From assembly GCA_963713825.1 (NCBI GenBank), contig CAVQNG010000005.1, positions 256,001 to 320,000 on the forward strand: a stretch of DNA of 64,000 bases. Reading direction: 5' to 3'. The notes below the pieces were generated by a model. It was not told the DNA's origin, did no database searches, and saw nothing but the letters and a program-made list of their open reading frames with translations. Positions within the stretch are counted from its first letter, which is position 1, and every line of letters starts with the position of its first letter. Shown piece by piece: positions 11,662 to 38,679 of the stretch. The position numbers were made by a program, and so were the translations under genes. The stretch is from an uncultured Acidobacteriota bacterium (GTDB lineage Bacteria; Acidobacteriota; Thermoanaerobaculia; Multivoradales; JAHEKO01).

Positions 11662-13371
11662 ATGCGCTGGAGCAAGTTCTATCTGTTTACCACCAGAGAG
11701 GTGCCGAACGACGCCGAAGTCGTCAGTCACCAGCTCATGGTGCGAGCCGGGATGATCCGCAAGGCGGCTGCAGGCATCTACACCTATCTGCCGCTCGGAT
11801 GGCGGAGCATCCGCAAGATGATGGACATCGTGCGCCGCGAAATGGACGCGGCCGGCGCCGTGGAGCTGCTGATGCCGGCAGTCCACCCGGCCGAGCTCTG
11901 GAAGGAGACGGAGCGTTGGGACGTTTTCGGCGATCTGCTCTTGAAGATGAAGGACCGCAATCAGCGCGACTTCTGTTTGGGTCCGACGCATGAGGAAGTG
12001 GTGACCGATGCGGTGCGCCACGATGTGAAGAGCTATCGGCAGTTGCCCTTCAACCTCTACCAGATTCAGGACAAGTTTCGTGACGAGATTCGCCCGCGGT
12101 TCGGCCTCATGCGAGCCCGGGAGTTCTTCATGAAGGACGCCTACTCCTTCCATGCCGGCGCCGACAGCCTGGACGAAACCTACGAGGCGATGCGGCAGGC
12201 CTACTGCAAGGTGTTCGAGGACTGCAAACTGGAGTACTCCATGGTCGAGGCCCTGAGCGGCGCCATCGGCGGCTCGGCGTCGCACGAGTTCATGGTGCTT
12301 GCCGACACCGGCGAGGACGCGGTGGTCAGCTGCGCGAGCTGCGGATACGCCGCCAACGTGGAGAAGGCCGAAGCGCGCCCGTTGACTTCAGACTCCTCTG
12401 GCGGGGACCCCGAAGATCTGCTGGAGGTTTCGACCCCGGCAGCAACGACCATTGCCGACGTGACGGGGCTCCTGGAGGTCGGAGCCGAGCGCTTGGTGAA
12501 GACCCTGGTTTATGAAACGGAGGAGGGCCCTGTCCTGGCTCTTGTCCGGGGGGACCGGGACCTCAACGAGGCGAAGCTGGCGAGCTTCCTGGGTGCCCAA
12601 CACCTGAAGATGGCTGGTGACGAGCTCGTCGAGAGAGTCACCGGTGCGCCGGTCGGTTTCGCCGGGCCGGTCGGTCTGCCGCCAGCGGTTCGAATCGTCG
12701 CCGACGAGTCGATCCGGGAATCCACCAATTTCGTCGTTGGAGCCAACAAAGCCGATGCCCACTTCACCGGCGTCAACTGGGGTCGCGATGTCGATCTGAG
12801 CGAATGGACCGATCTGTTGCTGGTCACCGGAGGCGACGGCTGCCCACGGTGCGATGGCACCCTCGAGTTGCACCGCGGAATCGAGGTCGGTCACATTTTC
12901 AAGCTGGGTACGAAGTACTCGGAAGCCATGCACTGCACCTATCTGGACGACCAGGGGGCCTCGCATCCCATGACCATGGGGTGCTATGGGCTCGGTATCG
13001 GCCGCACCGTGGCGGCGGCCATCGAGCAGAATCACGACGAGAACGGCATCATCTGGCCGCTGCCGTTGGCACCGTTCGAAGTCCTGGTGATGGGTCTGAG
13101 CTCGAGGGACGAGCAGGTGGTGGAGACGGCCGACCGTCTCTACGGTCAGCTCGACGAGCAGGGCATCGAGGTGCTCTACGATGACCGCGACGAGCGACCG
13201 GGAGTCAAGTTCAAGGACGCCGACCTCATCGGCATTCCGGTGCGCTTGGTTGTCGGCGCCAAGAGCCTGGCCGAGGGGCAGGTGGAGCTTTCCCGGCGCC
13301 GCGACGGCGAGAAGATCCTCGTCCCGGTCGAGAACGCGATCGAGAAGATCAAAGAGCTGCTGGCTGGCTAG
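11662..13371 (+). CDS. proS: proline--tRNA ligase (bacterial type, with INS editing domain)
   Basis: SHQLMVRAGMI, LGPTHEE, FRDEIRPRFGLMRAREF, GIEVGHIFKLG and MGCYGLGIGR motifs. Confidence 0.98.
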   Translation: MRWSKFYLFTTREVPNDAEVVSHQLMVRAGMIRKAAAGIYTYLPLGWRSIRKMMDIVRREMDAAGAVELLMPAVHPAELWKETERWDVFGDLLLKMKDRNQRDFCLGPTHEEVVTDAVRHDVKSYRQLPFNLYQIQDKFRDEIRPRFGLMRAREFFMKDAYSFHAGADSLDETYEAMRQAYCKVFEDCKLEYSMVEALSGAIGGSASHEFMVLADTGEDAVVSCASCGYAANVEKAEARPLTSDSSGGDPEDLLEVSTPAATTIADVTGLLEVGAERLVKTLVYETEEGPVLALVRGDRDLNEAKLASFLGAQHLKMAGDELVERVTGAPVGFAGPVGLPPAVRIVADESIRESTNFVVGANKADAHFTGVNWGRDVDLSEWTDLLLVTGGDGCPRCDGTLELHRGIEVGHIFKLGTKYSEAMHCTYLDDQGASHPMTMGCYGLGIGRTVAAAIEQNHDENGIIWPLPLAPFEVLVMGLSSRDEQVVETADRLYGQLDEQGIEVLYDDRDERPGVKFKDADLIGIPVRLVVGAKSLAEGQVELSRRRDGEKILVPVENAIEKIKELLAG

Positions 13372-16092
13372 CTGTCGGCCAACTGGCTCAGTCGTTGGCG
13401 AACGAGGTTGGCTCGTGGGTCGCCTGGGGCGGCGCTCAGAAAAGCGCTCAAATGGTCCTTCGCCGCGTCGGGGCGATCGAGTGGTCCCGCATACAGATCC
13501 GCCAGCTCCAGATGGAGGTCGTGCTGCTCAGGGGCGATGCGCAGGGCCTCTTCCAGGTAGTCGGCCGCCTGCTGCCAGTCCTGCTGCCTTCCCGCCGAGA
13601 TGCCCAGGTTCACCATGGCTTGCCAGAGGCCGGGATCGACCTGCAGGGCCTTCTCATAGTGCTGGCGAGCCTCGGCGACGCGACCCTGCTGCTCGACGAT
13701 CAGCCCCAAATCGCTCCAGGTGTTCGCCTGTAGAGGGTCGATCTCGACAACCTGCCGCAGCCGTTCTTCCGCCCCAGCTAGATCCTGCCGCTGAATTTGG
13801 ATGGCCGCCAGCAGGGACAAGGCAGCCGTATTTCGAGGCTCGGTCATGAGTAGACCATCGAGCTCGGCCTGCGCTTCGTCGAGGCGGCCGGCCTGCAAGT
13901 GACCTGCGGCCTGCTGAACTGCCGGGCTTGGCGCTGCGGCCGTGGGTGGCGCTGCACCGCTCTTTTGCGACCGTGCGAAGTCGAGGGCGGCTTGGAGGTC
14001 TGGCCTGGGGTCCTCGGACAGGCTCAGCGCGCGGCTCAGGTGGGCCTCCGCAGCGTCGGCGTCGCGAAGTCGTATTGCTAGAAGACCGAGCCTGGAATGA
14101 AGCTCGAGGTCGTTCGGCCAGCGTTCGAGGGCCGCCCGTAGGGTGTTGGCGGCGGCCTGGAATTCCTCTGAGGTCTCCTCGGCCTCGGCGAGGAAAAGGT
14201 GGCCCTCGAGGATTGTCGGATCTTGGTCGAGGGCTCCCTGCAGGCGGTGGATGGCGCTCTCAGTCTCCGCGTCCACCATCTCTGCGAGTCGGGCGTAGTA
14301 GATGTTGATCCAGGGCTCGGCGGGCGATTGTTGTAGCGCTTCCTCAACCACCGCCCGGGCTCGATCGAGATCTCCGAGCTGCAGCAGTAGGATGGTCCGC
14401 TCCATCCATGCCTTCGTCAAGTCGGGATCGATCTCCAGTGCCTTCTCGGTCAGCTCGAGTGCCTCGGTCCTGTTGCCTTGCTGGTGCTCGATCGTCGCGT
14501 AGAGCAGGAGAATCGAGGCCGGATTGGCATCCAGAGCCAGGAGCCTCTGGATCACCGGCTCGATTTCCTCGTATCGACCGGCGTCGGCCAGGGCCTGCGG
14601 CAGCTCACGAAGAGCGGTCAGATTATCCGGGTCGAGGCGTAGAACTCGCTCTAGCTCGGCAACGGTTTCGGCCGCAGAGTGGGGCCCCCGATCGAAGAAG
14701 TCGAGCAGATCGTTGTGCAGGCCAATCATCTCGCTTGGATCGGGACGCTGGAGGTTCTCGAGTGCCCTGGGCTGGGTGGCCGCCATGTAGCCGAGGCTGC
14801 GCAGTGCCTCAGCGGTCTCGGTATCGAGCTCGATCTGCTGTTCACTCTCGACGATGAAGTTGGCTAGCTCCGCTGCCAGGGCAGCCACCATGTCAGGCTC
14901 CCGCGCGGCCAGATTGATGGCTTCTCCTGGGTCCTTTTCGAGGTTGTAGAGCTCGGGAGTTGTCGTTTGGATGAGCTTCCACGGCCAGCGCAGCAGGCTG
15001 TGCAGTCGGGCCCAGCCATAGGCGCTATAGCCCTGATAGCTCTCCGCATAGAGGGGGTCCGTCGATACCTCGCCTGCCGCAGTCAACTTGGGTCGAAGAC
15101 TGCGTCCCGTGGCCTGCGGTCGTGGATCGACCCCCAGGAAGTCGAGGAGAGTCGGGAGAATGTCGATCTGGCTGACGGGCGTCTCGTCTCGAAGTCCTTG
15201 CGGCCCTCCGGGGACAGTCAGGATCCAGGGAATCAGCAAGGTCGAATCGTAGACCAGGATGCCATGTGTCCCCTCACCGTGCTCGTCCAGGCTCTCTCCA
15301 TGGTCGCCGACGACGGCGATGACCACGTTGCCGCCAAGGCGCGGATGCTCCAGGAGTCGTCCGATCTGCGCGTCGACATAGGCCACCTCGCCGTCGTAGG
15401 GCCGGGGTCCGTAGCGCTCGGCGAACGGAGACGGAGGTGAGTAGGGGGCATGGGGGTCGAAGAGGTGCACCCAGGCGAAGAACCTCTCGTCGGCCCCGAG
15501 CCCGTCGAACCATTCTCTTGTCGATTCGACGACTACTGCGGCCGGTCGATCCGAGATGCCCCAGCGGGAGGTCGCGTTGGACCCACCGCCGATCTGATCG
15601 TCATAAGCCTCGAAGCCCTGGGCCAAGCCGTAGGAGCTGCCAAGGACGGCCGCGCCAACGAAGGCTGCAGTCCTGAAGCCCTCGCCTCCGAGGATCTCGG
15701 CCATGGTCTCGAAGTCTGCCTCGAGTCGGTTGATGCCGTTGTTTCGCACCCCGTGCTGCGGAGGGTAGAGGCCCGTCAGGATCGAAGCATGAGAGGGCAG
15801 GGTGATGGGGGCGACGGCATAGGCGCGATCGAAGACGATGCCGCTCGCCGCCAGACGGGCCAGGGTCGGAGTCTCTACGTCGATGGCACCGTAAGGCTCC
15901 AGCCGGTCGGGTCGAAGGGTGTCGATCGTGACCAGGAGCAGGGACAGCTCGCCAGACTCCAAGATCGGCAGCCGAGCTGGAGCCTTCCGACTCCGGTTGT
16001 CGACTGCAGCTGGAGCCGAAGTAGAGCGTTGTCAGGGCCATGAGAGCCACCAGTTGGCGCCACATTGACCGCTGTGTTGCCGCGGAGAACAT
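13368..16092 (-). CDS. sulfatase-like lipoprotein with long TPR tail; frameshift between signal peptide and catalytic domain
   Basis: Main ORF 13368-15962 has VTIDTLRPD, PITLPSH, GDHGESLDEHGEGTHG, LRSLGY and TPRs. The lipoprotein signal MFSAATQRSMWRQLVALMALTTLYFGSSC is upstream in a different frame. Confidence 0.8.
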
Positions 16093-16209: not shown

Positions 16210-17943
16210 ATGGCAAGCACGGCAAGTGAGAGGCATGGGCGATATCTCGTGCTGACTCTCGTGGCTGCGATGATCTCGACGCTTCCCGTGGTTGCGGGGC
16301 AGCCCCGTTTTGCCGAAGTGTCAGCCGAGATCGGGCTCGACTTCGTCCACTTCAACGGCATGTCGGGTGAGCTCTACTTCGTGGAGATGATGGGCCAGGG
16401 ACTGGCGATCCTGGACTACGACAACGATGGCGACCTCGATGTCTACTTCCTGCAGGGTCACATGCTCGGTGAAGGCAAGTCGGTGGAAGACGCCACCATA
16501 CCGCCCAAATACCCGCAGCCCTTCACGGATCGGCTCTATCGGAATGACCTGACAAGGGGAGTGGATGGAGAGTTGCAGGCCCATTTTGTCGACGTCACGG
16601 AGCAGATCGGTCTGGCGGCCCATGGCTACGGCATCGGTGTCGCCAGCGGTGACTACGACAACGATGGCTGGACGGACCTCTACCTCAACAACTGGGGGTC
16701 CAACCAGATGCTGAGAAACACCGGCGACGGGACGTTTGGCGACGCGACCGAGGAGACAGGAACCGATGATCCTCGTTACAGCGCTTCGTCGACGTTCCTC
16801 GACTTCGATCGAGACGGGTGGTTGGACCTGTTCGTCGCCAACTATGTCGATTGGACCCTGGCGAGACGCAAGGCCTGCACGGGCATGGGTGGGGCGCGGG
16901 ATTACTGCGCTCCATGGGCCTTCGAGCCGGTGCCGGACAGCCTCTTTCGCAATCGGGGCAACGGTCGTTTCGAAACTGCGACCCGTTCAGCGGGAGTGAG
17001 CAGCGAGTACGGCGCCGGTCTCGGCGTGGTGAGCGCCGACTTCAACGACGACGGCTGGCCGGACATCTACGTCGCCAACGATGCGTCCCCCAACCAGCTA
17101 TGGATGAACCAGCGCGACGGAACCTTCATCAACGATGGGCTGCTGGCCGGCTGCGCTGTCAATGACATGGGAATGCCCGAAGGCAGCATGGGTGTCGTGG
17201 CCGGCGACATCAACGGCGATGGCAGCTACGATCTGTTCATGTCGCACATTGTCGAGGAGACGAATACCCTCTATCTCAACGACGGCAGCGGCATGTTCAG
17301 CGAGACCACACGCGACAGTGGGTTGGCGTTGCCGAGCTTCAAGTACACAGGCTTCGGAACCGCTCTTTTCGACTTCGACAACGATGGCTGGCTCGACTTG
17401 TTCATTGCCAACGGTGCCGTGCATGAGATCGAGCACCTGGCGCGGGCAGGGGACATCTTTCCGATTCACCAGCCCGATACGCTCTATCACGGCCTCGGGA
17501 AGGGTCGCTTCGCCGAGGTGACCCAGGAGGCCGGAGCTTTCGTGTTCTCGGAAGTGGGGCGCGGAGTGGTCTTCGGCGACCTGGAGAATGATGGCGATTC
17601 CGACCTCCTGGTCGCCAACAATGGCGGTCGCGCTCGAGTGTTTCGCAACGAGGCGGGCAACAGCGTCAATTGGATGGGTCTGCGCTTCGTCAGTCCATCG
17701 CATCACCAGCCGCCGGGTGTGAAGGTCGAGGCCGTGCGCTCCGACGGATTCGAGATTTGGCGTCGCAATGGCACCGATGGCAGCTATGCTTCGGCGGGTG
17801 AGCCTCGGGTGCTGCTCGGCCTCGATGCGGCGAACGGACCCGTGCGGCTGCGAGTCCGCTGGCCAGGGGGGCGGGTCCAAGAGTTCCCTGGCTTGCCGCC
17901 GAACCACTACATCACGATCATGGACAAAGGAGATCACAAGTGA
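16210..17943 (+). CDS. CRTAC1-family FG-GAP repeat protein with ASPIC/UnbV domain
   Basis: Signal peptide, about seven DxDNDGxxD blades, C-terminal GSYASA..RVLLGL...VRWPGG. Confidence 0.92.
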   Translation: MASTASERHGRYLVLTLVAAMISTLPVVAGQPRFAEVSAEIGLDFVHFNGMSGELYFVEMMGQGLAILDYDNDGDLDVYFLQGHMLGEGKSVEDATIPPKYPQPFTDRLYRNDLTRGVDGELQAHFVDVTEQIGLAAHGYGIGVASGDYDNDGWTDLYLNNWGSNQMLRNTGDGTFGDATEETGTDDPRYSASSTFLDFDRDGWLDLFVANYVDWTLARRKACTGMGGARDYCAPWAFEPVPDSLFRNRGNGRFETATRSAGVSSEYGAGLGVVSADFNDDGWPDIYVANDASPNQLWMNQRDGTFINDGLLAGCAVNDMGMPEGSMGVVAGDINGDGSYDLFMSHIVEETNTLYLNDGSGMFSETTRDSGLALPSFKYTGFGTALFDFDNDGWLDLFIANGAVHEIEHLARAGDIFPIHQPDTLYHGLGKGRFAEVTQEAGAFVFSEVGRGVVFGDLENDGDSDLLVANNGGRARVFRNEAGNSVNWMGLRFVSPSHHQPPGVKVEAVRSDGFEIWRRNGTDGSYASAGEPRVLLGLDAANGPVRLRVRWPGGRVQEFPGLPPNHYITIMDKGDHK

Positions 17944-19877
17944 ATTACGGCGCTCTCAGCCGAGCCTCACGGGGACGATGGGGTGCTCACCGTTGGCTCA
18001 TAGCGGCCGTCGTCGTTCAGGTGCTGGCCTGTTCTGGTGCTCTGTGGAGCCAAGAACCCGATGCCTTCGATGCCCTGATCGAGGTCCCGGTACCGGCCCT
18101 GGACAAGTTCGAACAGGCGATCCAGGACCAGTTGCTGGAGCAGCGGGCCAGCCTCGACGGGCTCGTCTCCAGAACCGACGTGCCACGCCTGGAGCTGATG
18201 GAGTCCTTCGGCAAGACAGGGCAGCTGTACTTCCTCTATGAGGTCTACGAAGCCGCGCAGGCCTGTTTCATCAATGCGCGGACGCTCGCTCCCAGAGACT
18301 TCCGTTGGCACTACTACATAGGCGTCGTCTACAGCCGCCAGGGTGAGGCCGCGAAGGCTATCGACAGCCTCGAGCAGGCGGTTCCTCTGCGCCCTCAGAG
18401 TATCCCTGCTCACATGCGCCTGGGCCTCCTCGAGTTCGATCACGGTGACCTCGACAGAGCAGAACAGGAGTTTCTCGCCGCGCTCGAGATCAAGTCCGAT
18501 CTCGCAGCTGCTCACCACGGCCTTGGAATGGTCGCCCTCCGGCGTGGCGACCCGCAAATGGCGATCCAGCACCTCGAAAGGGCTCTGGAGCTGCAGCCGA
18601 AAGCAACGACCATTCATCAGCAGCTCGGTCTGGCCTATCGCGAGCTGGGAGATCTCGATCGGGCGCGCTATCACCTGCAACTCAACGAGCACGACCCGGT
18701 GATGTTCCCCGATCCACTCGTCTTTCGTCTGTCTGGCCTGATTCAGGGCAGCCGGTTCTACATCAAGCTGGGTAACGAAGCTCTCAAGGCAGGGCGACTC
18801 GGACAGGCGATCGACGACTTCAGCGAGGCGGTAGCCAGGGATCCCGAGGAGAAGCTCGCCCAATACAATCTCGGTCAGGCCCTGCTGCAAGCCCAACGCT
18901 TCGACGAAGCGATCCAGCACTTTGAACGAGCGCTCGACATCGATCCGGACTTTCGCGACGCTCACTACAATCTGGGTACAACGCTCAGCGAGCTCGAGCG
19001 CTTCGAAGAATCCGCGGCCCACTTCCAAAGAGCCCGCGAGATCGATCCCCAGGATCGGGAGGCGCGTTTGCAGTGGGCCATGGCAATGGGCCGGGCCGGA
19101 AAGGCTCGGGAGGCGGTCGAAGAGCTACAGGCACTGCGCGCCGAGAATCCTGACGATGCCGGAGTCGCCCTGAGCCTGGCGGCCATTCTGGGGCCCGTGG
19201 GGCAGGTCGATGCGGCCCGCGCAGAGTTGGACCGGGCCCTGTCCATCTCCCGCGAACCGGCGCTCGAGGCCGAGGCGCATTTCCAGCTCGGTCTACTGGA
19301 CCAGGGTGAAGGAGCAACAGCGTCGGCGATCGATCACTTCCTGACCGCTGGCGAGCTCAATCCGAAGTTGAGCGCTGCCAACACCGCCGCCGGTGCGCTA
19401 CAGGCCCAGCAAGGGGCCTTCGAGGCGGCCGCCGAGAGTTTCGAGCGGGTGGTCGAAGTCGATGCAACGAATGAGATAGCCCGATTCAGCAGGGCCATGG
19501 CCCTGCTGCTGGCAGGCAACTACCAGCTGGCGACCGACGAACTGGAAGAGGATCTCGAGATTCTGCCGCAGAGCCTTCCCCTGCGGCATCTGTTGGCCCG
19601 CCTGCTGGCCACGGTCCCGGACGAGTCAGTTCGTGATGGAGATCGAGCCCTGGTATTGGCGAAGGAGGTCTTCGGACTGGCTGTCAGCGCCGACCACGCC
19701 GAAACCCTGGCGATGGCCTGGGCGGAATCGGGCGATTTCGACACCGCCATCCAGTGGCAGGAGAGGGCTCTGGAGCTGTTGCCTGAAGGCGGAGGCCCCG
19801 GACAGGCCTCTGCAGCGCGCCTCCGCCTGGAGCAGTACCAGAGCGGGCAAGCCTGCAGGGAGCCGTGGAAGGACTGA
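17940..19877 (+). CDS. exported TPR protein
   Basis: Signal peptide and many TPRs. Overlaps the upstream CRTAC1 stop (GTGA). Paralog of 24546-26561. Confidence 0.88.
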   Translation: MNYGALSRASRGRWGAHRWLIAAVVVQVLACSGALWSQEPDAFDALIEVPVPALDKFEQAIQDQLLEQRASLDGLVSRTDVPRLELMESFGKTGQLYFLYEVYEAAQACFINARTLAPRDFRWHYYIGVVYSRQGEAAKAIDSLEQAVPLRPQSIPAHMRLGLLEFDHGDLDRAEQEFLAALEIKSDLAAAHHGLGMVALRRGDPQMAIQHLERALELQPKATTIHQQLGLAYRELGDLDRARYHLQLNEHDPVMFPDPLVFRLSGLIQGSRFYIKLGNEALKAGRLGQAIDDFSEAVARDPEEKLAQYNLGQALLQAQRFDEAIQHFERALDIDPDFRDAHYNLGTTLSELERFEESAAHFQRAREIDPQDREARLQWAMAMGRAGKAREAVEELQALRAENPDDAGVALSLAAILGPVGQVDAARAELDRALSISREPALEAEAHFQLGLLDQGEGATASAIDHFLTAGELNPKLSAANTAAGALQAQQGAFEAAAESFERVVEVDATNEIARFSRAMALLLAGNYQLATDELEEDLEILPQSLPLRHLLARLLATVPDESVRDGDRALVLAKEVFGLAVSADHAETLAMAWAESGDFDTAIQWQERALELLPEGGGPGQASAARLRLEQYQSGQACREPWKD

Positions 19878-19886
19878 TGTCCAGCC

Positions 19887-21515
19887 TCAGTCGGTTGTCG
19901 GCTCGCTCAGCGCCGCCAGGTTCTTGGCGGCGAGCGGATCGTCGGGCTGCAGCATCAGAACCTGCTCCAGGAGGAGCTTGGCCTCTTCGTTCTCGTCTTT
20001 GGCCATCAACAGCACCGCGAGGTCGTTCATGGCAGCGGTGTGCTGCGGTGCCATGGTGATGGTCTTGCGTAGATCTTCCTCGGCCGGGCCACTCAGTCCG
20101 ATGTCGAGCCGAACCACCCCTCGCATGTAGTAGGAATCGGCGATGTCGGGGGCCAGCTGCACTGCGGATTCCGCGACATCCAGGGCTTCCTGGAGGCGGC
20201 CCATCTCCGACAGCAGTCGCGCTTCGAAAAGCATGGGCCGGGGGTCCCCTGGTGCCAGGATTGCCTCTTGTCGCACAGTTCTCAGAGCGGCCTCGCGGTT
20301 GCCACCGCTCGACAGGTGCATGGCCCAGCGCAATCGAGCCCCGGTGGGGTCGTTGGCCAGCGTGCCCAGCGACAGAGCGGCACCTTCCGGGTCGGTACCT
20401 CTGAGAATCTGGCTGACCTGAAGCGCCGTTCGACTCTCCTCGTCCCGTCCCTCCGCCGCCAGCGCTGCGCTCAACCACTCCCAGGCTTCCGGATTGCTGG
20501 GATCGACAGCCGTCGCATATTCGAGAGGCGGCAGGGCATCGGAGCTCCGTCCCGCCTGGCTCAGCATCTGGCCGTAGTCCGCGGTGACCTCGGCCGCCAG
20601 AATCCGGTCGGAGTCCGGTGAGTCTGGTCCGATGCTGGATTGGAGGCTCTCGGCTACCGGTTGCAACGTCTGAATTGCTGCGTCTTGCTGCCCCATCGCG
20701 GCCTGGGCACGGGCTTGAAGTCGTACGAGGTCGGGATCGGTGCCGGCTTTTCCTTCGAGTGCCTGGAGCGCGGATTCAGGCTGACCCACCAAGAGATAGC
20801 TCTCTGCCAGGACACTCAGCACCTGGGGCTCGAGGCCGTCTGGCGGACTTTCCGACAGCGGCTGGATCACGGCGAGAGCACCCCAGCCATCCTCGTTCAG
20901 CAGCCCGACACGACCGCGGAGAATATTGGCGGCCGGCAGATCCAGGGGCAGGGTCATCAGCACGTCTTCGGCATCGGAGGCCCGCCCGAGAGCCACTGCA
21001 CAGGAGGTTGCGGCAAGCAGGGCACCGGTATCCTCGGGGTGAAGCCTGCTCCATGGGCGCAGGAGCAGGAAGGCGTCCATCAGGTTGCCTTGGCGCAGCC
21101 GGACGAATCCCAATTCCCGAGCGGCAGGGCTGACCGGCGTCATCGCTAGCGATCGCTCCAGATATCCCTTCGCCTTGTCGAGATCACCCACTCCAGCCGC
21201 CGCACGTCCGGCGTTGTAAAGCACTGCAGGCTCGGCCTCTGGTGAGTCGGCCAGGGGCGTCAGAATGGTCACGGCATCGGCGGCTCGGTCAGCTTCGAGA
21301 TAGAGCGCCCCAAGGGTTTGCGAGACTCGGGAGTCCTTCTCACCCTGGGCAAGGGCCTCTTCCAGCTCGGTGATCGCTGGGTCGAGCTCACCCGATTCGA
21401 GATGTTTCAACACCCGATTGAGAGTCTCGTCGGCCGCGGTCGGTTCCTGCTGGCCAGCCGCGGCAAGCGGTAGAAGAACAAGCAGTAGCAGTGAGAGGTG
21501 GATCGAATGTCTCAT
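19887..21515 (-). CDS. exported TPR protein
   Basis: Clear signal peptide MRHSIHLSLLLLVLLPLAAAG followed by TPRs. Confidence 0.88.
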   Translation of the reverse strand: MRHSIHLSLLLLVLLPLAAAGQQEPTAADETLNRVLKHLESGELDPAITELEEALAQGEKDSRVSQTLGALYLEADRAADAVTILTPLADSPEAEPAVLYNAGRAAAGVGDLDKAKGYLERSLAMTPVSPAARELGFVRLRQGNLMDAFLLLRPWSRLHPEDTGALLAATSCAVALGRASDAEDVLMTLPLDLPAANILRGRVGLLNEDGWGALAVIQPLSESPPDGLEPQVLSVLAESYLLVGQPESALQALEGKAGTDPDLVRLQARAQAAMGQQDAAIQTLQPVAESLQSSIGPDSPDSDRILAAEVTADYGQMLSQAGRSSDALPPLEYATAVDPSNPEAWEWLSAALAAEGRDEESRTALQVSQILRGTDPEGAALSLGTLANDPTGARLRWAMHLSSGGNREAALRTVRQEAILAPGDPRPMLFEARLLSEMGRLQEALDVAESAVQLAPDIADSYYMRGVVRLDIGLSGPAEEDLRKTITMAPQHTAAMNDLAVLLMAKDENEEAKLLLEQVLMLQPDDPLAAKNLAALSEPTTD

Positions 21516-30650: not shown

Positions 30651-31595
30651 CTATTCACCCTGCTGCAGATACTCCAGGAAGTCCCTGGCCTCGGTCGCGC
30701 GTGGCGTGTCGGGAGCGAGCTCGATGAGCTTCTCGAAATCGGCCGCTGCGGCATCGTTCTCACCCTTGTTGAGCAGCACCAGACCTCGGTAGTAGTAGGC
30801 GGCCGCGAGGTCGGGGAAGTTCCCGACGACTCTCTCGAACTCCACCAGCGCCTCGTCCAGATTACCGTCGTTGTAGAGATCGATGCCGACGTTCAAATAG
30901 GCATCGGCGTCGAGTAGCTCGCCTTCCGGGAGCTGATCCATGAAGACTTTTGCCTCGTCTGGGCGCCCCTGTGCCACCAACATGCTGCTCAGGAGCTTCA
31001 GAGCATCGATGTTGTCGGGCTCGATCTCCACGATCCGCCTCAGGGTTGCTTCGGCCTGTTCCAGGTTGTCTTCCTGGTAGTAGGTGCGGGCGATGCCCAT
31101 CAGCACGGGAGGGTGATTCTCCACGTCGAGCTCGGCCAGCGCGTTCTCATACTCGGCCCGAGCCTCGGTGGTCTTGCCTTCCTGCAGGAGCTGATTCCCT
31201 TGTTCGAGGAGCTCCACCGACAACTCGGCTGCGGCCTCGGCCAGCACTTCCGGCGGGATGGGTCGCAGAGTGACATTGACGGTGGCGGATCTACCGAACT
31301 CATTCGCCCCCACTGTTCCCTCTGAAGGGACATAGCCCGGAAACTCGATGCTGACGGTCCACATGCCGTTGGTCAGCCCAAGAAAACTCCACTTGCCCTT
31401 CGCGTTGGTGAAGAAGGGCTCGGGCCCCTCGCCGGCCCGGATGAGAGTGATCCTGGCGCCTTCGATGGGTTCGCCGTTTTCGTCCTTTACGGTGCCTTGT
31501 AAGCGGCCTCGCCCGGCCCAGCCCTGTGCCAGCACAGGGGTTGCCGCGACAGCCAGAAGTAGAGCTATCACTACCAGGGTTGCAACGTGTCGCAT
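30651..31595 (-). CDS. exported protein with carboxypeptidase-regulatory-like (prealbumin fold) domain and TPRs
   Basis: Signal peptide, GRLQGTVKDENGEPIEGA...T...GKW...GL..G.W, then TPRs. GAGGAG RBS. Confidence 0.88.
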   Translation of the reverse strand: MRHVATLVVIALLLAVAATPVLAQGWAGRGRLQGTVKDENGEPIEGARITLIRAGEGPEPFFTNAKGKWSFLGLTNGMWTVSIEFPGYVPSEGTVGANEFGRSATVNVTLRPIPPEVLAEAAAELSVELLEQGNQLLQEGKTTEARAEYENALAELDVENHPPVLMGIARTYYQEDNLEQAEATLRRIVEIEPDNIDALKLLSSMLVAQGRPDEAKVFMDQLPEGELLDADAYLNVGIDLYNDGNLDEALVEFERVVGNFPDLAAAYYYRGLVLLNKGENDAAAADFEKLIELAPDTPRATEARDFLEYLQQGE

Positions 31596-31680: not shown

Positions 31681-31711
31681 AAAAAAAGCCGGGGGCTCGA
31701 GGCCCCCGGCG
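31681..31711 (-). terminator. Rho-independent terminator after the TonB-dependent receptor gene
   Basis: Minus strand reads GCCGGGGGC-CTCGA-GCCCCCGGC followed by T7. Confidence 0.85.
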
Positions 31712-31739: not shown

Positions 31740-34700
31740 TTACCGCCAGTTCAAGCGGACACCGAGTCGGAAGACCCGAGGTGCCAGCGAGGTACTGATC
31801 CACCCCACGTTGCTGGAGGTGGTGTTGCGGAAGCGATCCAGTACGACACCGTCGTTGAAGATATTGAAGGCATCGATCGAGAAGGTCAGGCCGAGGTTAC
31901 CCGTCGTCCTGAACTCTTTTTCGAGCCGCATATCCATGGAGAACAGATCCTCCATTCGGTAGTCGTCGATGCTCGGAGCACCCTGAATCGACCGTGAAAT
32001 TCCGTCCAGGCCGGTTCTGTTCCGGTAGTACGGAATCGGATAGCCCTGACGGCCGGTCATGTTGGCGGCGACGTTGAAGCCCCACGGGCGATCCGGCGCC
32101 ACCTGGTACATGCCATTCAAGTTCCAACCCCATTCGGACTGCAGCCAGGACTCGTTGCGGCCGGAACCAGTCGACTGAATGACATAGGTCGAGCCGTCGA
32201 TCACGGCACCAGCAGCCACGCCAGGCAGCACGCGGTTGGGATCGTTGTTGTTGAAGTAGCTCGTCGGCACACTCCAGGTCTCGTCGAAGTTGTACTGGAC
32301 GTAACCACGCATCATCCACTGGTTCGCCAGTCGCTTCGTGAAGCCGATGGTGCCACCGAGGTAGTCGATCTCACGGTCACCGTTGGTGAACAGCTGACCA
32401 CCCGTGTAGTTCCATTTCGACGGATCCGCCGAAAAGGTGTTATACGAGTAGGTCCCCGCAGGTCCACCAATGCCCGGAATCGTGATGTCGAGTTGGGTCG
32501 GGTCCGTGATGTACTCACTGGCCGGAATCGTCTGCGGTGTCGCGTTGTCGTTGCCGACAGGTGTGAACAGCCGCTGGAAGTCCTGTACATCCGTGACCTT
32601 ACGCCAGGTGAGAGTACCGCTGACCACGAACTCAGGCAGGAAGGCATGCTCGGCACCAAGGATCAACTCGTTGGTGAGCGGTGCATCCATGCCCGGGTCG
32701 TTCTTGTTGGATGACGACAGGGCTGTCGGGTCATTGGGGTTGAAGCCCCAGTATCCCGCCGCTACCTCGTACTGCTCGCCGTCATCGTAGAAGCCCGGGA
32801 AACCACCCGGATCGTCGACGAAGACGATGTACGCTAGTTGCGCGGACAAGGGACTCGTGCGGCTGATATTGCCCAGCGACATGACATCCGGGAACTGCGA
32901 GAAGCTACCGCGCAGCAGCGTTTTGCGCTCCTCACCGAGGGCGTAAGTAACACCCAGGCGGGGAGTGATGCTCGACCAATTGAGCCCGTCGGCGTCGTTA
33001 CCGGCGAAGTCGATGGCAGGCATTTCATTCGGGAAGCCGATGTTGGCATCCACGACACCAGCCGTGTTCTCACCGGACTGGTCGTCCCAACGGAAGCCGA
33101 CGTTGAATGTCCATGAGCCCATCGTCATCGTGTCCTGGACCCACAACGAATCGTAATTCGTGATGTTAGGTACGGGACCCTGACGGTAGGCGTAGACCGC
33201 AGCGTAGTCGTCCGCACGGTTCACAGGCAGTCCAAGCGAGGCACCCAGAGCGACATCGCCCGCCACGCCGGCATAGGTGCCGTCGTAGTGGAAGATGTTC
33301 CGGCCGGGGTACGACCAGGCACTCTCGGTGGAAGCTTCACGCGTCCGGCCACCGAACTTGAGCTCGTGGTTCAAGTTCGACGTGGTGAAGAAGTAGGAGC
33401 CGTCGATCTTGATCTCCTCGGTCGGACGGCTGTTGCCGCCGGAAGCGTTGTTGGTCGTGAAACCGTTGCCGTCGGTGTACTTCTCACCGCCGGGGAACGG
33501 ATTTGCAGCGTTGCCCGAACCGGCACCACCCTGCGCCGTCAGCGAGAAACCGCCATCGACAAAGGAGTACTGACCGGTCAGGAAGAGGTTCGAGCCGAAG
33601 ACGTGCGTGTCCTCGATCTTGGTGATCCCCGTCGGACCACGCTGGTTCCAGGTCGCCGAGGGGTCGCTGTCCGGCGACGCGCCACGGCCGATCTTCCGTT
33701 TGTCACCGTTGTTGAAGGAGGCGACGAACGAGTTGGCCGCGGTGAACTGGGCGTTCAACTTGATCGCGGTGCCTTCGAGGATCGTGCGGTCGGACTGGCC
33801 ACCACCGGTGATCCGGTTGATGTCGTTCTGACCCCACGAAGCCCACAGCCAGACGCGATCCCGCCACGCCGGACCACCAGCCTCGAAGCCGAATTCCTGG
33901 ATACGATCCACCGTGTCACCTTGATAGTTCGTCTGGCCCGGTCCGAGATCGCTCTGGCTGAAGCCAGGATCAGCGGCTTCGAGCGCGCCGAAGTAACCAC
34001 CAGCGTCGGTCAGCAGGAAGCGGGCCGTGCCGCGGAACTCGTTGGTACCACGCTTGGTCACCATGTTGACCGAGACACCGGCTGCGCCCTTGCTTACATC
34101 GGGACCACCGGTTGCCAGCTGAATCTCGGAGAACTGGTCGAAATCGTAGTAGGTCGGTGAGGAGCCGATGGCGGACATGTCCGTGATCTGGACACCGTCG
34201 ACAAGAAAGTCGTTCTCGTCGCCGTTGTTGGCCTGGCCACGGAAGACGGCCTGCTGGCCGCTCTCGTTACCACCGACGTTGATGCGGTCGGTCATGACAC
34301 CGGGAGCCTGCTGCACGATGGCCCACGGGTCACGCGCGCTCGGAATGCTCTCGAGCTCGACCTGACTGATCGTGGTACCGGCAGTGAGCTTGCGCTCATC
34401 CAACAGCGGGCTCTCGGAAGTCACCGTGATCACCTCACCAATGGCAGCACTGAGCTGCACCTGGATCGTGGTGCTCTTACCGACTCTGACGCTGACGTTC
34501 GGGTACTCAACGGTGGAGAAACCGTCCAGGGTGGCCTTCAGGCTGTAATTGCCTGGGGCCAGACCGAGGAAACGTGTTTCACCCTGTGCGTTGGTAATCC
34601 CGAGTCTGGGCGCTCCGCCACCCACCATTTCAACATTGACGCCTGGCAGAGTTTGTCCTGCGGTGTCGGTGACCTGAACATAAATGTTCCCGGTCTCCTC

Positions 34701-34775
34701 CTGCGCTACTGCCATGGTGCTCAGCAGGAGCGCAACACCGAAGACAACGTACTTTCGCCACATGCTTCGGTTCAT
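31740..34775 (-). CDS. TonB-dependent receptor-like outer-membrane protein (Oar type, N-terminal carboxypeptidase-regulatory domain)
   Basis: Signal peptide, prealbumin-like domain, plug (ARDPW...PGV; VTKRGTNEFRG) and beta-barrel ending DAFNIFN...PRVFRLGVRLNW. AAGGAGG RBS before ATG 34775. Confidence 0.92.
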   Translation of the reverse strand: MNRSMWRKYVVFGVALLLSTMAVAQEETGNIYVQVTDTAGQTLPGVNVEMVGGGAPRLGITNAQGETRFLGLAPGNYSLKATLDGFSTVEYPNVSVRVGKSTTIQVQLSAAIGEVITVTSESPLLDERKLTAGTTISQVELESIPSARDPWAIVQQAPGVMTDRINVGGNESGQQAVFRGQANNGDENDFLVDGVQITDMSAIGSSPTYYDFDQFSEIQLATGGPDVSKGAAGVSVNMVTKRGTNEFRGTARFLLTDAGGYFGALEAADPGFSQSDLGPGQTNYQGDTVDRIQEFGFEAGGPAWRDRVWLWASWGQNDINRITGGGQSDRTILEGTAIKLNAQFTAANSFVASFNNGDKRKIGRGASPDSDPSATWNQRGPTGITKIEDTHVFGSNLFLTGQYSFVDGGFSLTAQGGAGSGNAANPFPGGEKYTDGNGFTTNNASGGNSRPTEEIKIDGSYFFTTSNLNHELKFGGRTREASTESAWSYPGRNIFHYDGTYAGVAGDVALGASLGLPVNRADDYAAVYAYRQGPVPNITNYDSLWVQDTMTMGSWTFNVGFRWDDQSGENTAGVVDANIGFPNEMPAIDFAGNDADGLNWSSITPRLGVTYALGEERKTLLRGSFSQFPDVMSLGNISRTSPLSAQLAYIVFVDDPGGFPGFYDDGEQYEVAAGYWGFNPNDPTALSSSNKNDPGMDAPLTNELILGAEHAFLPEFVVSGTLTWRKVTDVQDFQRLFTPVGNDNATPQTIPASEYITDPTQLDITIPGIGGPAGTYSYNTFSADPSKWNYTGGQLFTNGDREIDYLGGTIGFTKRLANQWMMRGYVQYNFDETWSVPTSYFNNNDPNRVLPGVAAGAVIDGSTYVIQSTGSGRNESWLQSEWGWNLNGMYQVAPDRPWGFNVAANMTGRQGYPIPYYRNRTGLDGISRSIQGAPSIDDYRMEDLFSMDMRLEKEFRTTGNLGLTFSIDAFNIFNDGVVLDRFRNTTSSNVGWISTSLAPRVFRLGVRLNWR

Positions 34776-34946
34776 ACGAAAAACCTCCTTGGTCATTCGT
34801 GTTTGGAGCTTTCGCACGCTGCCAAAGCTCCGCTTACGTTGTTATAAAAGAACGAGGACATGACATCCTCGAATGCACACGCTGGATAAAGCCTCACCGA
34901 ATTGTCCGAACTCGAAAACTCTATAGAAACCATCACTACCAAGTCA

Positions 34947-34963: not shown

Positions 34964-34990
34964 CTTTTTTGGCGACTTGTTTGAGACTAC

Positions 34991-35003: not shown

Positions 35004-35257
35004 AGTATAGGCTTAGGGCTTTCCACAAGGGGTGTGGACTGAGGTGGGGAAGGGGTCGATTCGGTCCTTTGAACTCGTCCAATCCAATTTTCTGGATTCT
35101 GGCCCCGTAAGGCCCTGGGAAGCCTTGGGTGCAGGGCTGGATCTGCTGGCAATCGGGACGGAGTATGATGATGCGACCGACCGGCGCTGCGGCCCAGCAA
35201 ACCTTTCCGCAGGGCTCGACGTATGGGAAGGATGGGAGATCAGTGAAACACGGCACC

Positions 35258-36388
35258 ATGAAGGCAAGATCAGGTTTTCAGATTCTCTCGCTGGCCGTGC
35301 TGTGCACGGCGGTTGCGGGCTGCTCGGGATACGAGCCGATCGATCCTCAGGAGCTCTTGTACGACGATTTGGCGGCGAGAGTTGGAGCCGAGAGAGCCCG
35401 GAGCATTGCAGTGCCCTTCCAGATCAATGATGAGATCCGCCAGGCAATGCGTGGGCGCGCCATGCCGATCGGCCGCGAGAAGACGCGCACCAGTGCGATT
35501 CTGGACTTTGTCTTCGAATCGCTCGATTTGCAGTACTCGCTGTCGCCGACGCGCGACGCGATCGGTACCTATCGGGCCAGGAGTGGGAACTGTCTGTCGT
35601 TCGTCAATCTGTTCGTTGGCATGGCCCGTGAAGTCCACCTGAACCCCTTCTATGTCGAGGTCACCGACTTCCAGCGCTGGAACTACCGGGATGGGGTCGT
35701 CGTCAGCCAGGGTCACATCGTCGCTGGCATGTCTGTCGATGGCAGCCTTTCGACTTTCGACTTTCTACCCTACGAAGCAAAAGCCTACCGGGACTTCAAG
35801 CCGATCGACGACATGACGGCGATCGCGCACTACTACAACAACATCGGCGCCGAGGCTCTGCTCGATGACAATCTGGAGCAAGCGGAGCAGGCCCTGACGC
35901 TGGCGGTCGACCTGGATCCGGACTTCAACAAGGCGCTCAACAACCTGGGAGTCTTCTTCTTACGGTCGGGTCAAGCTGACGAGGCCGTGCAAATGTTTCG
36001 CGGTGCGTTGGAGAGAGATCCGGCGGATGTGGCTCTGATGACGAACCTGGCGCGAGCTTTGCAGACGAAAGGTGATGTACAGGAGGCCAAAAAACTGTTG
36101 GCGCAGCTCGACGAGGTCAGCCAGACGAGCCCGTTCTTCTTCATCTACCGAGGGGAGATGGCTCTGGGCGATGGAGATACAGCGCAGGCTCTCGAATTCA
36201 TGCGAGAAGCCCTGCGGCGGGACAGTGAGGTGCCGGAAGTGCATGTCGGCCTGGTGAAGGTGTACCTGGCGCTCGGTGACATGGACAAAGCCCGCCACCA
36301 TCTCGAGCGGGCTCTGCGCCTCGATGCCACCAATCAGGAGGCGCGTCGGTTCGCAGTCATGTTGCAGGCGAAAGAAGTCGAGAACTAG
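35258..36388 (+). CDS. transglutaminase-like + TPR lipoprotein
   Basis: Lipobox VAGC; GNCLSF (Cys), GHIV (His), FDF (Asp); C-terminal TPRs. Confidence 0.8.
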   Translation: MKARSGFQILSLAVLCTAVAGCSGYEPIDPQELLYDDLAARVGAERARSIAVPFQINDEIRQAMRGRAMPIGREKTRTSAILDFVFESLDLQYSLSPTRDAIGTYRARSGNCLSFVNLFVGMAREVHLNPFYVEVTDFQRWNYRDGVVVSQGHIVAGMSVDGSLSTFDFLPYEAKAYRDFKPIDDMTAIAHYYNNIGAEALLDDNLEQAEQALTLAVDLDPDFNKALNNLGVFFLRSGQADEAVQMFRGALERDPADVALMTNLARALQTKGDVQEAKKLLAQLDEVSQTSPFFFIYRGEMALGDGDTAQALEFMREALRRDSEVPEVHVGLVKVYLALGDMDKARHHLERALRLDATNQEARRFAVMLQAKEVEN

Positions 36389-36447
36389 GTTGCGGGCGAA
36401 GAACCTCAGTCTCGTCCTGTTGCAGAGGAGTCGAACAGGGAGCTAGG

Positions 36448-38679
36448 ATGAAGGTAGCCGTTTCTCCGAGGAGGTCGAGCATGTCGCAGCTATCCTTGCC
36501 TCCAGGCCATCGAGCCGCTGCTCTGATCGTGGCTGCCCTGGGTCTGGTTACCGTCCCGCCCCCAATCCAAAGCCAAACCGTTGAAGAGGTCTTCAGGGAC
36601 ACCGTCGAGGTCGTCGAGATTCAGGTGCCGGTCAACGTGGTCGGCAAGGATGGTGAGCCGGTTCGAGGCCTCACCGCCGAGAGCTTCGAGGTCTTCGACG
36701 GCAAGAAACAGCAACAGATCACTGGCTTCAGGGTGGTCGATCTGGATGTGATCGAGAGCAGCATGACCCGGCGGGAGATGGAGCTGGCGGTTCCCGCCGC
36801 GGCCCGGCGCCACTTTCTGCTGCTCTTCGATCTCTCGTTTTCCACGCCCACCTCCATTCTCAGGGCCCGCGAGGCGGCGCGGCAGTTCGTCCTGGATTCT
36901 CTGCATCCGACCGATCTGGCGGCGGTCATGGTCTTCGAAGCGGAGTGGGGTCCACGATTGATCATCACCTTCACACCCGACCGGGTGCAGCTGGCCCGCG
37001 CGATCGACACGCTGGGTGGCGCGCGATGGATGATGGCAGGCCGCAACAACATCGATCCGCTGCGTTTCATGGTGCCGGATCTCTTGCCGGGTAGGGGGCC
37101 GGGTGGTATCGGCGACCCGTTGCCGATGAGCCCCTCCGATCCGAACTCTCGGGACGACGCGCTGGCCGCGGCGACATTTCGCGCCGTCGGGAAAATGATG
37201 AGCGACACCGAAAAAAGTTACGAGGCCGGCCGTGTCGCCTCCTGGGCGTCATCGATGGAGACCCTGGCCAAGCTGCTGGAGAGTGTCCAAGGCCGCAAGC
37301 ATGTCATTCACTTCTCTGAAGGCTTCGATGGTCGGCACTTCCTGGGGCGCAATCCCGATCCCAACGATCCGTCCTTCCAGGAGGACCGCAGCAACATCGA
37401 ATGGGGACAATACTGGATGGTGGACTCCAACGATCTCTACGGCGATACAGGGTTGCAGAACGCCATGGTCGAGATGGTCGAGGAGTTTCGGCGCGCCGAC
37501 GCCGTGATCCAGGCGGTCGACATCTCGGGGCTGGGCAGCGAATCGGAGGCAGCCGCGCGCGCCAAGGGCACCACGAAGAGCGCCATGTTCTACGTTGCCA
37601 ACGAGACCGGCGGTGAGTTGTTCGACAATGCGAACAACTTCGGGCCGGAGCTCGAAGAGGTGCTGCGGCACACAGCGGTGACGTACGTGCTGACCTTCCA
37701 GCCAGAGGAAATGGACTTCGATGGCACGTTTCACAAACTGCGGGTCAAGGCCGATCTGCCGGAGGGTGGGCGGGTCTTTTACCGCCGCGGCTACTACTCC
37801 CCTCGTCCCTTTAGCGACCTCGATCCGATGGAGAAGCAGCTGCTCGCTTCCGATGCCATCGCGGCCGCCGAGCCCCGAAGGGATGTTGGTGTACAGATCC
37901 TCGCCGCCCCCTTCAAGGCTTCGGCCGAGGCGGCCTATGTGCCGATCATCATCGAAGTCGATGGTGGCAGCCTGATCCGTGGCCAGGACGGAGATGATGT
38001 CGCGGCCGAGATCTACACCTATGTCAGCGACAGCCAGGGGCAGATGCTCGACTTTTTCACGCAGCTTGTGAGTCTCGATGTGTCGCGCGGCAAGGAGTCC
38101 TTTGTCCGCGGCGGAGTGAAGTACTACGGGCAGCTGTTTCTCCCGCCGGGTGACTACATGGTTCGGGTGCTGGTTCGCAATAGCTTGACTGGCCGCACCG
38201 GCGTAGAAACCGTGAGCGTCCCCGTGCCGAGCTACGAAGACCAACCGGCCGTGCTCCTGCCACCGCTATTCCTGGAATCGCAGGAGCGGTGGGTTCTGGT
38301 TCGGGAGAACCGGGAAGGACCTGACCAGGGCACGGTGGTGTATCCGTTCACGGTCCGCGGTGAGCCCTTCATTCCGGCGGCCAAACCGTCGGTGCGCCAG
38401 CGTGGGCAGATCGATGTGTGCCTGGTGGGGTACAACCTGGGCGATAGCTCTCTGGAGTTCGACACGATGGTCTTCGATTCCGACCATCAGCGGATCGAAG
38501 GCGGCGCCTTCGATCTGGTGGAGAGGACCATTACGGGCATTGCCGGCCAGGACAAGTTGCTGGGCCGATTCCGACCCGAAGGCCTGGACGCAGGTGAGTA
38601 CACCGTGCAGTTCTTCCTCAACAACCCTGAGCTCGGCGCTGTCGAATCGTCCTCCGTACCGATCACCGTTTTGAATTGA
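36448..38679 (+). CDS. exported VWA-domain protein (Acidobacteria VWFA-related type)
   Basis: V.VPVNVVGKDGEPVRGLT..F.V.DG, LLFDLS.S, GRKHVI.FSEG, ANETGG, DG.FHKLRVK, R.GYY, then a C-terminal Ig-like region. Start may be 36481. Confidence 0.85.
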   Translation: MKVAVSPRRSSMSQLSLPPGHRAAALIVAALGLVTVPPPIQSQTVEEVFRDTVEVVEIQVPVNVVGKDGEPVRGLTAESFEVFDGKKQQQITGFRVVDLDVIESSMTRREMELAVPAAARRHFLLLFDLSFSTPTSILRAREAARQFVLDSLHPTDLAAVMVFEAEWGPRLIITFTPDRVQLARAIDTLGGARWMMAGRNNIDPLRFMVPDLLPGRGPGGIGDPLPMSPSDPNSRDDALAAATFRAVGKMMSDTEKSYEAGRVASWASSMETLAKLLESVQGRKHVIHFSEGFDGRHFLGRNPDPNDPSFQEDRSNIEWGQYWMVDSNDLYGDTGLQNAMVEMVEEFRRADAVIQAVDISGLGSESEAAARAKGTTKSAMFYVANETGGELFDNANNFGPELEEVLRHTAVTYVLTFQPEEMDFDGTFHKLRVKADLPEGGRVFYRRGYYSPRPFSDLDPMEKQLLASDAIAAAEPRRDVGVQILAAPFKASAEAAYVPIIIEVDGGSLIRGQDGDDVAAEIYTYVSDSQGQMLDFFTQLVSLDVSRGKESFVRGGVKYYGQLFLPPGDYMVRVLVRNSLTGRTGVETVSVPVPSYEDQPAVLLPPLFLESQERWVLVRENREGPDQGTVVYPFTVRGEPFIPAAKPSVRQRGQIDVCLVGYNLGDSSLEFDTMVFDSDHQRIEGGAFDLVERTITGIAGQDKLLGRFRPEGLDAGEYTVQFFLNNPELGAVESSSVPITVLN

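Follow-up and report, generated by a model that had tools for sequence, protein, structure and literature searches.

A conserved Oar-class receptor, transglutaminase-fold and VWA core with a variable CRTAC1/TPR array in Thermoanaerobaculia, possibly an outer-membrane import locus

We examined a 64,000 nucleotide stretch, here called the window, from an uncultured sediment Acidobacteriota bacterium of the class Thermoanaerobaculia (assembly GCA_963713825.1, contig CAVQNG010000005.1, positions 256,001 to 320,000), and found that a block of 13 genes in it, here named g1 to g13, consists of two layers. The first is a conserved core (g1, g9, g10, g11, g12 and g13) encoding two sulfatase-like proteins with tetratricopeptide repeats (TPRs), a beta-sandwich-TPR protein, an Oar-class TonB-dependent receptor, a transglutaminase-fold protein and a von Willebrand factor A (VWA) protein. 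The second is an array of CRTAC1-like propeller and TPR genes (g2 to g8), a lineage-variable neighbour placed between g1 and g9. We tentatively favour reading the block as an outer-membrane locus for nutrient capture and import, comparable to a polysaccharide utilization locus (PUL) without SusD, for which the import substrate is probably peptide-rich or phosphorylated organic matter. An initial annotation of the window had interpreted all 13 genes as one multi-component machine, either for uptake or for adhesion and surface assembly, and that interpretation is partly supported. A full-text literature search (bioRxiv supplements outside it) found no description of the cluster or of a partner of bacterial CRTAC1, and the initial annotation likewise knew of no functional description of bacterial CRTAC1-TPR-receptor loci; in the accessible text of a paper on Solibacter (PMC3174227) the same families are merely listed among expanded paralogs. 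New here are the two-layer anatomy, the core arm formed by the sulfatase-TPR gene and g10, the contexts of the receptor paralogs, and a predicted CRTAC1-TPR heterodimer together with natural fusions.

Orthologs of g12 were located in ten contiguous relatives and the 40 kb around each was examined. Species-representative genomes were also scanned once with a g12 alignment, which gave 240 pattern matches; a relative is encoded by 216 of them, and the best 80 were used. The two sets overlap, as seven of the ten contiguous-relative genomes are also among the best 80 loci. Full 10 kb flanks are present at 47 of the 80, all from Thermoanaerobaculia, which are kin and not independent. At these 47 loci, a g11-type receptor gene is always adjacent to and divergent from g12 (47/47), and a g13-type VWA gene is found downstream of g12 in 46, with at least two copies in 42; these VWA genes come in tandem sets of two to five. 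A g10 gene was found at 42/47 loci and an upstream sulfatase-TPR gene at 36/47, with the strict order sulfatase-TPR, g10, receptor at 32/47 and at least two receptors at 5/47. When all of the best 80 loci are counted, 59 of the 60 that could be evaluated have the receptor and 62 of 65 have the VWA gene. The order of the core is kept in all ten contiguous relatives. Two sulfatase-TPR genes lie upstream at 7/47 loci, and two lie within 10 kb on either side at 21/47. As two such genes recur near the core, we conclude that both g1 and g9 belong to the old set.

This comparison of neighbourhoods had been set in advance as a check on the initial annotation, and the conserved synteny of the core in relatives did not refute it. 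Synteny supports the proposal for g9 to g13 and the second sulfatase-TPR gene, but not a fixed 13-gene unit, because the CRTAC1/TPR array is variable. Ortholog-level g12 (E <=1e-117) was found in 26 of 40 relatives, namely 18/24 of the same family and 8/16 of other families of the order, and the negative genomes include some that are 98-99% complete. This patchy distribution fits a niche function better than housekeeping. In two relatives (L024:5216-6694 and L042:5161-6765) a DUF3179 gene, which gives no functional lead, is inserted between the g12 and g13 orthologs.

Cluster-type TPR genes (g3, g4, g5 and g7 types) are present at 26/47 full-flank loci, and CRTAC1 genes lie within 10 kb of the core at 19/47. 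The three propeller proteins, g2, g6 and g8, belong to the CRTAC1 family by their matches to PF13517 (1e-42 to 1e-45) and PF07593 (5e-10 to 2e-15), and the DxDxDG loops are conserved. Stop and start codons overlap by 4 nt at g2/g3 and g5/g6, and g7 and g8 overlap as ATGA at the probable g8 start, so that every propeller gene of the array is translationally coupled to a TPR gene. The order CRTAC1-then-TPR645 recurs in relatives, as does g5-then-g6, and g4 orthologs lie near the core in many of them. The complex of mature g6 and mature g5 was predicted with a separate alignment for each chain, in three runs with controls. The interface score ipSAE was 0.77, 0.78 and 0.76, against 0.15 for the best control; the pass mark is reached by 116 of 157 solved complexes and by 2 of 215 mismatched pairs, counts that apply only roughly here because the alignments were own-made. 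At least 91% of contacts are common to the runs, the partner has a predicted local distance difference test (pLDDT) value of 89, and the predicted g6 interface comprises residues 213-232, 286-316, 355-371 and 402-405. The model supports a g5/g6 heterodimer. Natural TPR-CRTAC1 fusion proteins of 1245 and 869 aa were found in two relatives, and lend such pairing independent support at the sequence level. Complex prediction had been suggested as a check in the initial annotation, and for this TPR/CRTAC1 pair it gave a confident interface with clean controls. For the further proposal that TPR proteins act as scaffolds, the predicted interface and the fusions support one TPR-propeller pairing, g5 with g6, but there is no sign of assembly around the barrel.

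Elsewhere, CRTAC1 keeps other company, and pairing with TPR proteins is a subfamily trait. The genome has 11 UnbV_ASPIC matches in total, and the neighbours of its other CRTAC1 copies are CHAT-TPR genes, multiheme cytochromes (one with TPRs), an ABC system and unrelated genes. CRTAC1 occurs in 64 of 121 sampled Acidobacteriota genomes, with up to 36 copies each (two unpublished genomes, G062 and G087, are counted in the phylum tallies, and G087 also supplies one of the surveyed loci). On the downstream side of 28 surveyed loci across the phylum, a same-strand open reading frame (ORF) of at least 150 aa is present in 20, of which two encode TPR proteins, four cytochrome c554-like proteins and two CRTAC1, the rest being mixed; thus, TPR genes follow only 2/28. 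These different surroundings, together with the size of the families in this genome (11 UnbV_ASPIC, 19 TIGR03436 of which 18 exceed the cut-off, and about 39 sulfatase-like BLAST matches) and the paralog expansion published for Solibacter (in the accessible text of PMC3174227), are what would be expected if members of heavily expanded Acidobacteriota families (Oar, TIGR03436 VWA, CRTAC1, TPR and sulfatase-like) merely lay side by side. We regard that as improbable, as order and orientation in the core are constant for the receptor (47/47) and nearly so for the VWA gene (46/47) at 40-60% protein identity, genes overlap by 4 nt, the g5/g6 interface is predicted with clean controls and is matched by fusions, and CRTAC1 lies near the core at 19/47 loci, against the few percent estimated for some 10 copies per 5-Mb genome.

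Several further arrangements of these families were seen. CRTAC1 adjoins a multiheme cytochrome c554-like gene, on either side, at two loci of the same genome (L001 and L005) and at four in other Acidobacteriota (L137, L138, L144 and L154); one of the cytochromes carries TPRs and another a beta-propeller, and the pairing recurs across the phylum. On contigs C13, C14 and C16 of the genome (L002, L003 and L006), alike in layout, a 980-aa CHAT-TPR protein is followed by unknown proteins and then CRTAC1. The CRTAC1 gene of both C14 and C16 is split and followed by a TPR gene, C14 additionally encodes two sulfatase-TPR proteins, an M14 peptidase and an Oar-like receptor inside 35 kb, and the three loci may be partly duplicate assembly. 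In 'Multivorans'-type genomes (L078:916-3222 and similarly L074, L079, L080, L101, L106 and others), a TPR protein of 750-820 aa, whose first part is similar to g4 and whose second part is similar to g5, is placed after a g6-like CRTAC1, and may be a g4/g5-type fusion. Finally, L130 (genome G015, contig C8) provides a second neighbourhood of receptor, CRTAC1 and TPR genes, independent of the first: downstream of an extra g11-type receptor gene, and on its strand, come two small ORFs and after them CRTAC1 paired with TPR645.

The block occupies positions 13368-38679 of the window, between proS and two tRNA-Val genes (Table 1), as the initial annotation had it: 13 consecutive ORFs with coding-type base composition at third codon positions (GC3) confirm the gene count. 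It sits amid housekeeping genes (proS, tRNA-Val, thrS and pheT), a thrS/proS neighbourhood that recurs in several relatives, and the base composition (GC 0.58-0.65) reveals no foreign island. Domains were called with Pfam and NCBIfam profiles at the family cut-offs. These calls bear out the annotated domain set (TonB receptor, three CRTAC1, transglutaminase and, through TIGR03436, VWA), the presence of TPRs in eight proteins (g1, g3, g4, g5, g7, g9, g10 and g12), and the statement that no transporter ATPase, regulator or mobile gene is included, as none of the 13 proteins matched ATPase, regulator or mobile-element families in Pfam. All 13 proteins had been described as exported. With N-termini judged by eye, a signal or lipoprotein peptide is present in 12 of the 13 as called; the exception is g1, whose signal is in a shifted frame.

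Table 1. Features in and around the 13-gene block (positions in the window)
Feature	Position	Strand	Description
proS	11569-13371		left border of the block
g1	13368-15962 (ORF); to 16092 with shifted-frame signal	-	Sulfatase (PF00884, 4.4e-35) with long TPR tail; TLPSH
g2	16210-17943	+	CRTAC1-like propeller, FG-GAP_3 and UnbV_ASPIC; 52% identity to g8
g3	17940-19877	+	TPR only, 645 aa; paralog of g7 (29% identity, full length)
g4	19887-21515	-	TPR only, 542 aa, signal peptide; no paralog in genome
g5	21595-22860	+	TPR only; probable start M34; predicted partner of g6
g6	22857-24542	+	CRTAC1-like propeller, FG-GAP_3 and UnbV_ASPIC
g7	24546-26561	+	TPR only, 671 aa
g8	26558-28369 (probable ATG 26558; longest ORF from 26450)	+	CRTAC1-like, FG-GAP_3 and UnbV_ASPIC
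g9	28408-30618	-	lipoprotein (LLSC), Sulfatase and TPRs; TLPAH
g10	30651-31595 (ORF to 31721; probable start M43)	-	CarboxypepD_reg beta-sandwich and TPR; exported
hairpin	31688-31710	-	terminator-like, 9 G-C pairs and T8, between g11 stop and g10 start
g11	31740-34817	-	Oar-class TonB-dependent receptor: CarboxypepD_reg, Plug, OMP_b-brl_4
g12	35129-36388	+	lipoprotein (VAGC), Transglut_core with TPR tail
g13	36448-38679	+	VWA protein; TIGR03436 acidobact_VWFA match, no Pfam match
tRNA-Val (two genes)	38820-38897, 38931-39007		right border, followed by thrS

The receptor g11 matches PF13620, PF07715 (28.2 bits; cut-off 23.9) and PF25183, which makes it a SusC-like barrel with an N-terminal extension and a plug; the CarboxypepD_reg extension, plug and barrel are those of the Oar class. 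Two paralogs that are 91% identical to it, with the differences spread evenly along the chain, are found in the same genome (G000 C3:413862-416906 and C3:613551-616790; L009 and L010). Downstream of one are genes for an M29 aminopeptidase and an OPT oligopeptide transporter, with a Glu/Leu dehydrogenase nearby; after the other come an amidohydrolase and a Glu/Leu/Phe/Val dehydrogenase. Judged by these neighbours, g11 looks like an importer of a peptide-type substrate. Copies of the g11 type are single, and in the core, in two genomes of other families; three same-family genomes have 3, 6 and 7. A Trans_reg_C regulator is found no more than three genes away from 11 of the 13 extra copies, and one copy adjoins M13 and Zn peptidases, in a census that scanned 33 of 65 candidate neighbours. 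The signal peptide of g10 is of type I and not that of a lipoprotein, and a lipobox-like string occurs in only 5/50 orthologs; it matched only CarboxypepD_reg and TPR families, and so is no SusD-family lipoprotein directly downstream of the receptor. The SusCD/PUL analogy of the initial annotation is thus upheld in its barrel, with extension and plug, but not in SusD or carbohydrate-active enzymes (CAZymes), neither of which was found.

In g1 and g9, the sulfatase-like proteins, the residues TLPSH and TLPAH line up with the formylglycine motif, (C/S)xPxR (in comparison with 7oz8), as the name Thr-'sulfatases' in the initial annotation implied. Among 43 sulfatase-TPR sequences, TxPxH is present in 38 and TxPxY in one, while 4 are outside the search pattern. 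As TxPxH replaces (C/S)xPxR, formylglycine cannot form, and the candidate assignment of g1 and g9 to the S1 formylglycine sulfatases was rejected. The metal-site motifs IDTLRxD and (S/G/A)DHG are retained, PF00884 is matched at 1e-35 to 1e-42, and PF01663 (Phosphodiest) is matched by both g1 and g9, at 54.9 and 62.2 bits, above its cut-off of 23. A Thr nucleophile is typical of the phosphoryl-transfer members of the alkaline-phosphatase superfamily, and TxPxH presumably corresponds to the 'TFPNH' motif of NPP enzymes. The Thr position, metal ligands and PF01663 match are, by sequence, those of Thr-nucleophile phosphoesterases of this superfamily, and g1 and g9 are therefore read as putative phosphoesterases, not sulfatases. 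This is a caution for metagenome surveys: such 'sulfatases' should not be counted as sulfatases, as 39 of the 43 sequences have another motif in place of the formylglycine one (4 outside the pattern).

The same Thr, together with the housekeeping surroundings that recur in several relatives and the weak NCBIfam resemblance that g9 shows to MCR-type and to YejM enzymes (E 4e-6, well short of the cut-offs), would also suit a role in envelope maintenance. The Thr-type lipoproteins would then be phosphotransferases or phosphatases acting on envelope lipids or glycans, as EptA, LtaS and YejM do; the TPR proteins would serve in assembly, and the barrel would be part of the envelope. This appears rather unlikely, as 14 of 40 relatives, some with genomes 98-99% complete, lack a g12 ortholog, g1 and g9 are lipoproteins or soluble proteins with TPR tails and do not have the membrane anchor domains of those enzymes, and the VWA, transglutaminase and CRTAC1 parts would be left unexplained.

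Only 8 residues of the g1 ORF precede the catalytic domain. Upstream, at 15963-16092 (minus strand, ATG at 16092), a lipoprotein signal (...LYFGSSC) is encoded with the frame shifted by one base, through either a frameshift or an error of assembly; no indel is listed for DNA contigs at the site, where cover at the exact place is not shown. A third sulfatase(TLPSH)-TPR gene at 5240-7731 (plus strand) of the window is split into ORFs 5240-6064 and 6091-7731, and its ortholog in some relatives is a single gene that adjoins g10. Because several copies of these families look broken in the assembly, assembly indels are as likely as pseudogenes.

For g12, Transglut_core (PF01841) was matched in all six N-terminal domains compared, four of them above the 23-bit cut-off. 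In an alignment of 17 sequences, one of them from the unpublished genome G006, C155, H196 and D211 are invariant, and would form the catalytic triad. Its model (pLDDT 74.8) returned only TPR proteins from Foldseek, with no structural match for the catalytic domain, and a PDB search with the g12 profile likewise returned only TPR proteins. A weak paralog of g12 on contig C4 has no receptor or VWA neighbours.

The VWA protein g13 scores 160.8 bits against TIGR03436 (cut-off 81.25). In the model (pLDDT 78.9; predicted template modelling score 0.77), a small N-terminal sandwich precedes a VWA domain with a long helical insert and three immunoglobulin (Ig)-like domains; a PDB sequence search gave 0 matches. 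Of the DxSxS site, D128 is invariant in 48 sequences and F131 and S132 are conserved in at least 90%. As S130 is not among the 90% columns, the metal-ion-dependent adhesion site (MIDAS) is only partly supported. Only 13 of 68 g13 orthologs have a lipobox. The 17 other TIGR03436 genes of the genome have no cluster-type neighbours within four genes, and only the g13 subgroup of the family is tied to the receptor-transglutaminase core.

The uptake reading rests on the contexts of the receptor paralogs, the expansion of the receptor beside regulators, the presence of two hydrolase-type lipoproteins and the patchiness of the core among relatives. Under it, exported binders (VWA/MIDAS and CRTAC1-TPR) would hold a macromolecular substrate at the envelope, a Thr-esterase (g9, g1) would strip phosphoester groups, the Cys-His-Asp enzyme g12 would cut peptide, and the TonB-energised barrel g11 would import the fragments, most likely peptides. 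The beta-sandwich-TPR protein g10, co-directional with the transporter, would be periplasmic or on the surface, and TPR tails may serve as docking modules. Several points weigh against this. Neither a SusD family protein or CAZyme nor a classical secreted peptidase family or inner-membrane transporter was found in the cluster with Pfam. The link between receptor and peptide catabolism is limited to the paralogs in this genome and one relative; the M29 aminopeptidase gene beside one paralog had no match in 5 relatives at E 1e-30, so the receptor-M29-OPT link is not established as conserved. The g12 enzyme could crosslink instead of cleave. The VWA and Ig-like stalk of g13 best matches adhesins (RbmA, and the VWA pilus-tip proteins PitA, Mfa5 and SpaC), with a whole-chain TM of at most 0.2. 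Lastly, an Oar-class receptor is documented in protein export, according to the accessible text of PMC6434023.

The last two points lead to an alternative in which a TonB-powered barrel exports or retains the VWA-Ig protein, and possibly CRTAC1-TPR heterodimers, for adhesion or display, g12 processes, releases or crosslinks them, and the TPR proteins form an outer-membrane platform. The g13 model, nearest to pilus-tip adhesins and the RbmA scaffold, its invariant D128 and nearly invariant F131 and S132, and the tandem sets of two to five VWA genes all fit, and the conserved DxDxDG loops of CRTAC1 are compatible with Ca-dependent binding. In Myxococcus, Oar is required for secretion of PopC (PMC6434023), the Glt platform of barrels, the TPR protein GltC and the lipoprotein GltK retains the VWA lipoprotein CglB, and CglD is a Ca-dependent integrin-like VWA lipoprotein (PMC9946355; 10.1101/2023.10.19.562135), as far as the accessible text of these sources goes. 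However, the lipobox is rare in g13 orthologs (13/68), no motor, TonB-like or secretion genes were found by Pfam among the 13 genes, near-identical receptor paralogs occupy catabolic loci, extra receptor copies pair with regulators as nutrient receptors do, and the 17 other TIGR03436 genes stand apart from such neighbours. On balance we think adhesion or display unlikely, though it deserves serious consideration.

A more specific arrangement, quite unlikely in our view, would have the TPR proteins as dedicated docking partners of CRTAC1, which together with the MIDAS-bearing VWA-Ig protein would make up a Ca-dependent, integrin-like capture system feeding, or displayed through, the Oar barrel, with g12 as a processing enzyme. 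If true, such a system of propeller and A-domain would be a new kind of outer-membrane machine, so far seen only in Thermoanaerobaculia. Members of this class are common in sediments. The locus is a conserved, testable unit of a receptor, two enzymes and VWA proteins, and the predicted, fusion-supported TPR partner is the first concrete handle that we could find on CRTAC1 proteins of bacteria.

RNA-library contigs of two studies align at 95% identity or higher to g11, g10, g3, g4, g5/g6 and g8, a weak hint of expression; they cannot rank genes, and DNA carry-over and the 91% identical receptor paralogs could yield the same matches. That such contigs do not cover g9 and most of g7 carries no weight. 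One of them spans the hairpin in Table 1. A promoter scan found 1 match where 2.3 were expected from shuffling, i.e. fewer than expected. Rfam returned only two tRNAs and a 6S RNA over the window, with no regulatory RNA within the cluster; the 6S/SsrS RNA lies at 45679-45865 (plus strand; 66.9 bits, gathering score 46.4).

Among known systems, the SusC/SusD PULs of Bacteroidota share with the block a TonB barrel with a CarboxypepD_reg-type extension, directly followed by an all-helical TPR-type gene, and exported lipoprotein enzymes and binders. However, g10 has neither the SusD family nor a lipobox, the cluster contains no glycoside hydrolases, lyases, esterase family, or hybrid two-component or extracytoplasmic function (ECF) regulator, and its enzymes are Thr-type phosphoesterase-like and transglutaminase-fold proteins. 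As both SusD and CAZymes are missing, it is not a SusCD PUL. Bat/MoxR-VWA-TPR operons encode a MoxR AAA ATPase and a DUF58 protein beside VWA and TPR genes; this identity was also rejected, as no AAA or DUF58 match was found in the cluster.

The PF13620 extension, Plug and large barrel of Oar from Myxococcus xanthus are also present in g11 (PMC6434023, in its accessible text), but here no PopC-like protease or dedicated Ton genes are nearby and g11 paralogs are in catabolic loci. The Glt/CglB/CglD proteins of Myxococcus likewise combine barrels, TPR proteins and a lipoprotein with surface proteins of the VWA/MIDAS type that have Ca-dependent, integrin-like parts (PMC9946355 and 10.1101/2023.10.19.562135, within the same limit), whereas the block lacks the Agl motor (AglRQS) and TonB-like GltG/J, and g13 is mostly not a lipoprotein. 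An Agl-Glt gliding apparatus was therefore rejected, as no motor families were matched and the GltE and Tgl matches were generic TPR matches far below the cut-offs. Compared with S1 sulfatases on one side and NPP, EptA and LtaS on the other, g1 and g9 keep the PF00884 fold and metal motifs but have TxPxH and PF01663. Finally, g2, g6 and g8 share FG-GAP_3 repeats with DxDxDG loops and a C-terminal UnbV_ASPIC domain with vertebrate CRTAC1 (ASPIC) and integrin alpha propellers, but the bacterial copies have no EGF tail (no Pfam match) and are instead coupled or fused to TPR partners.

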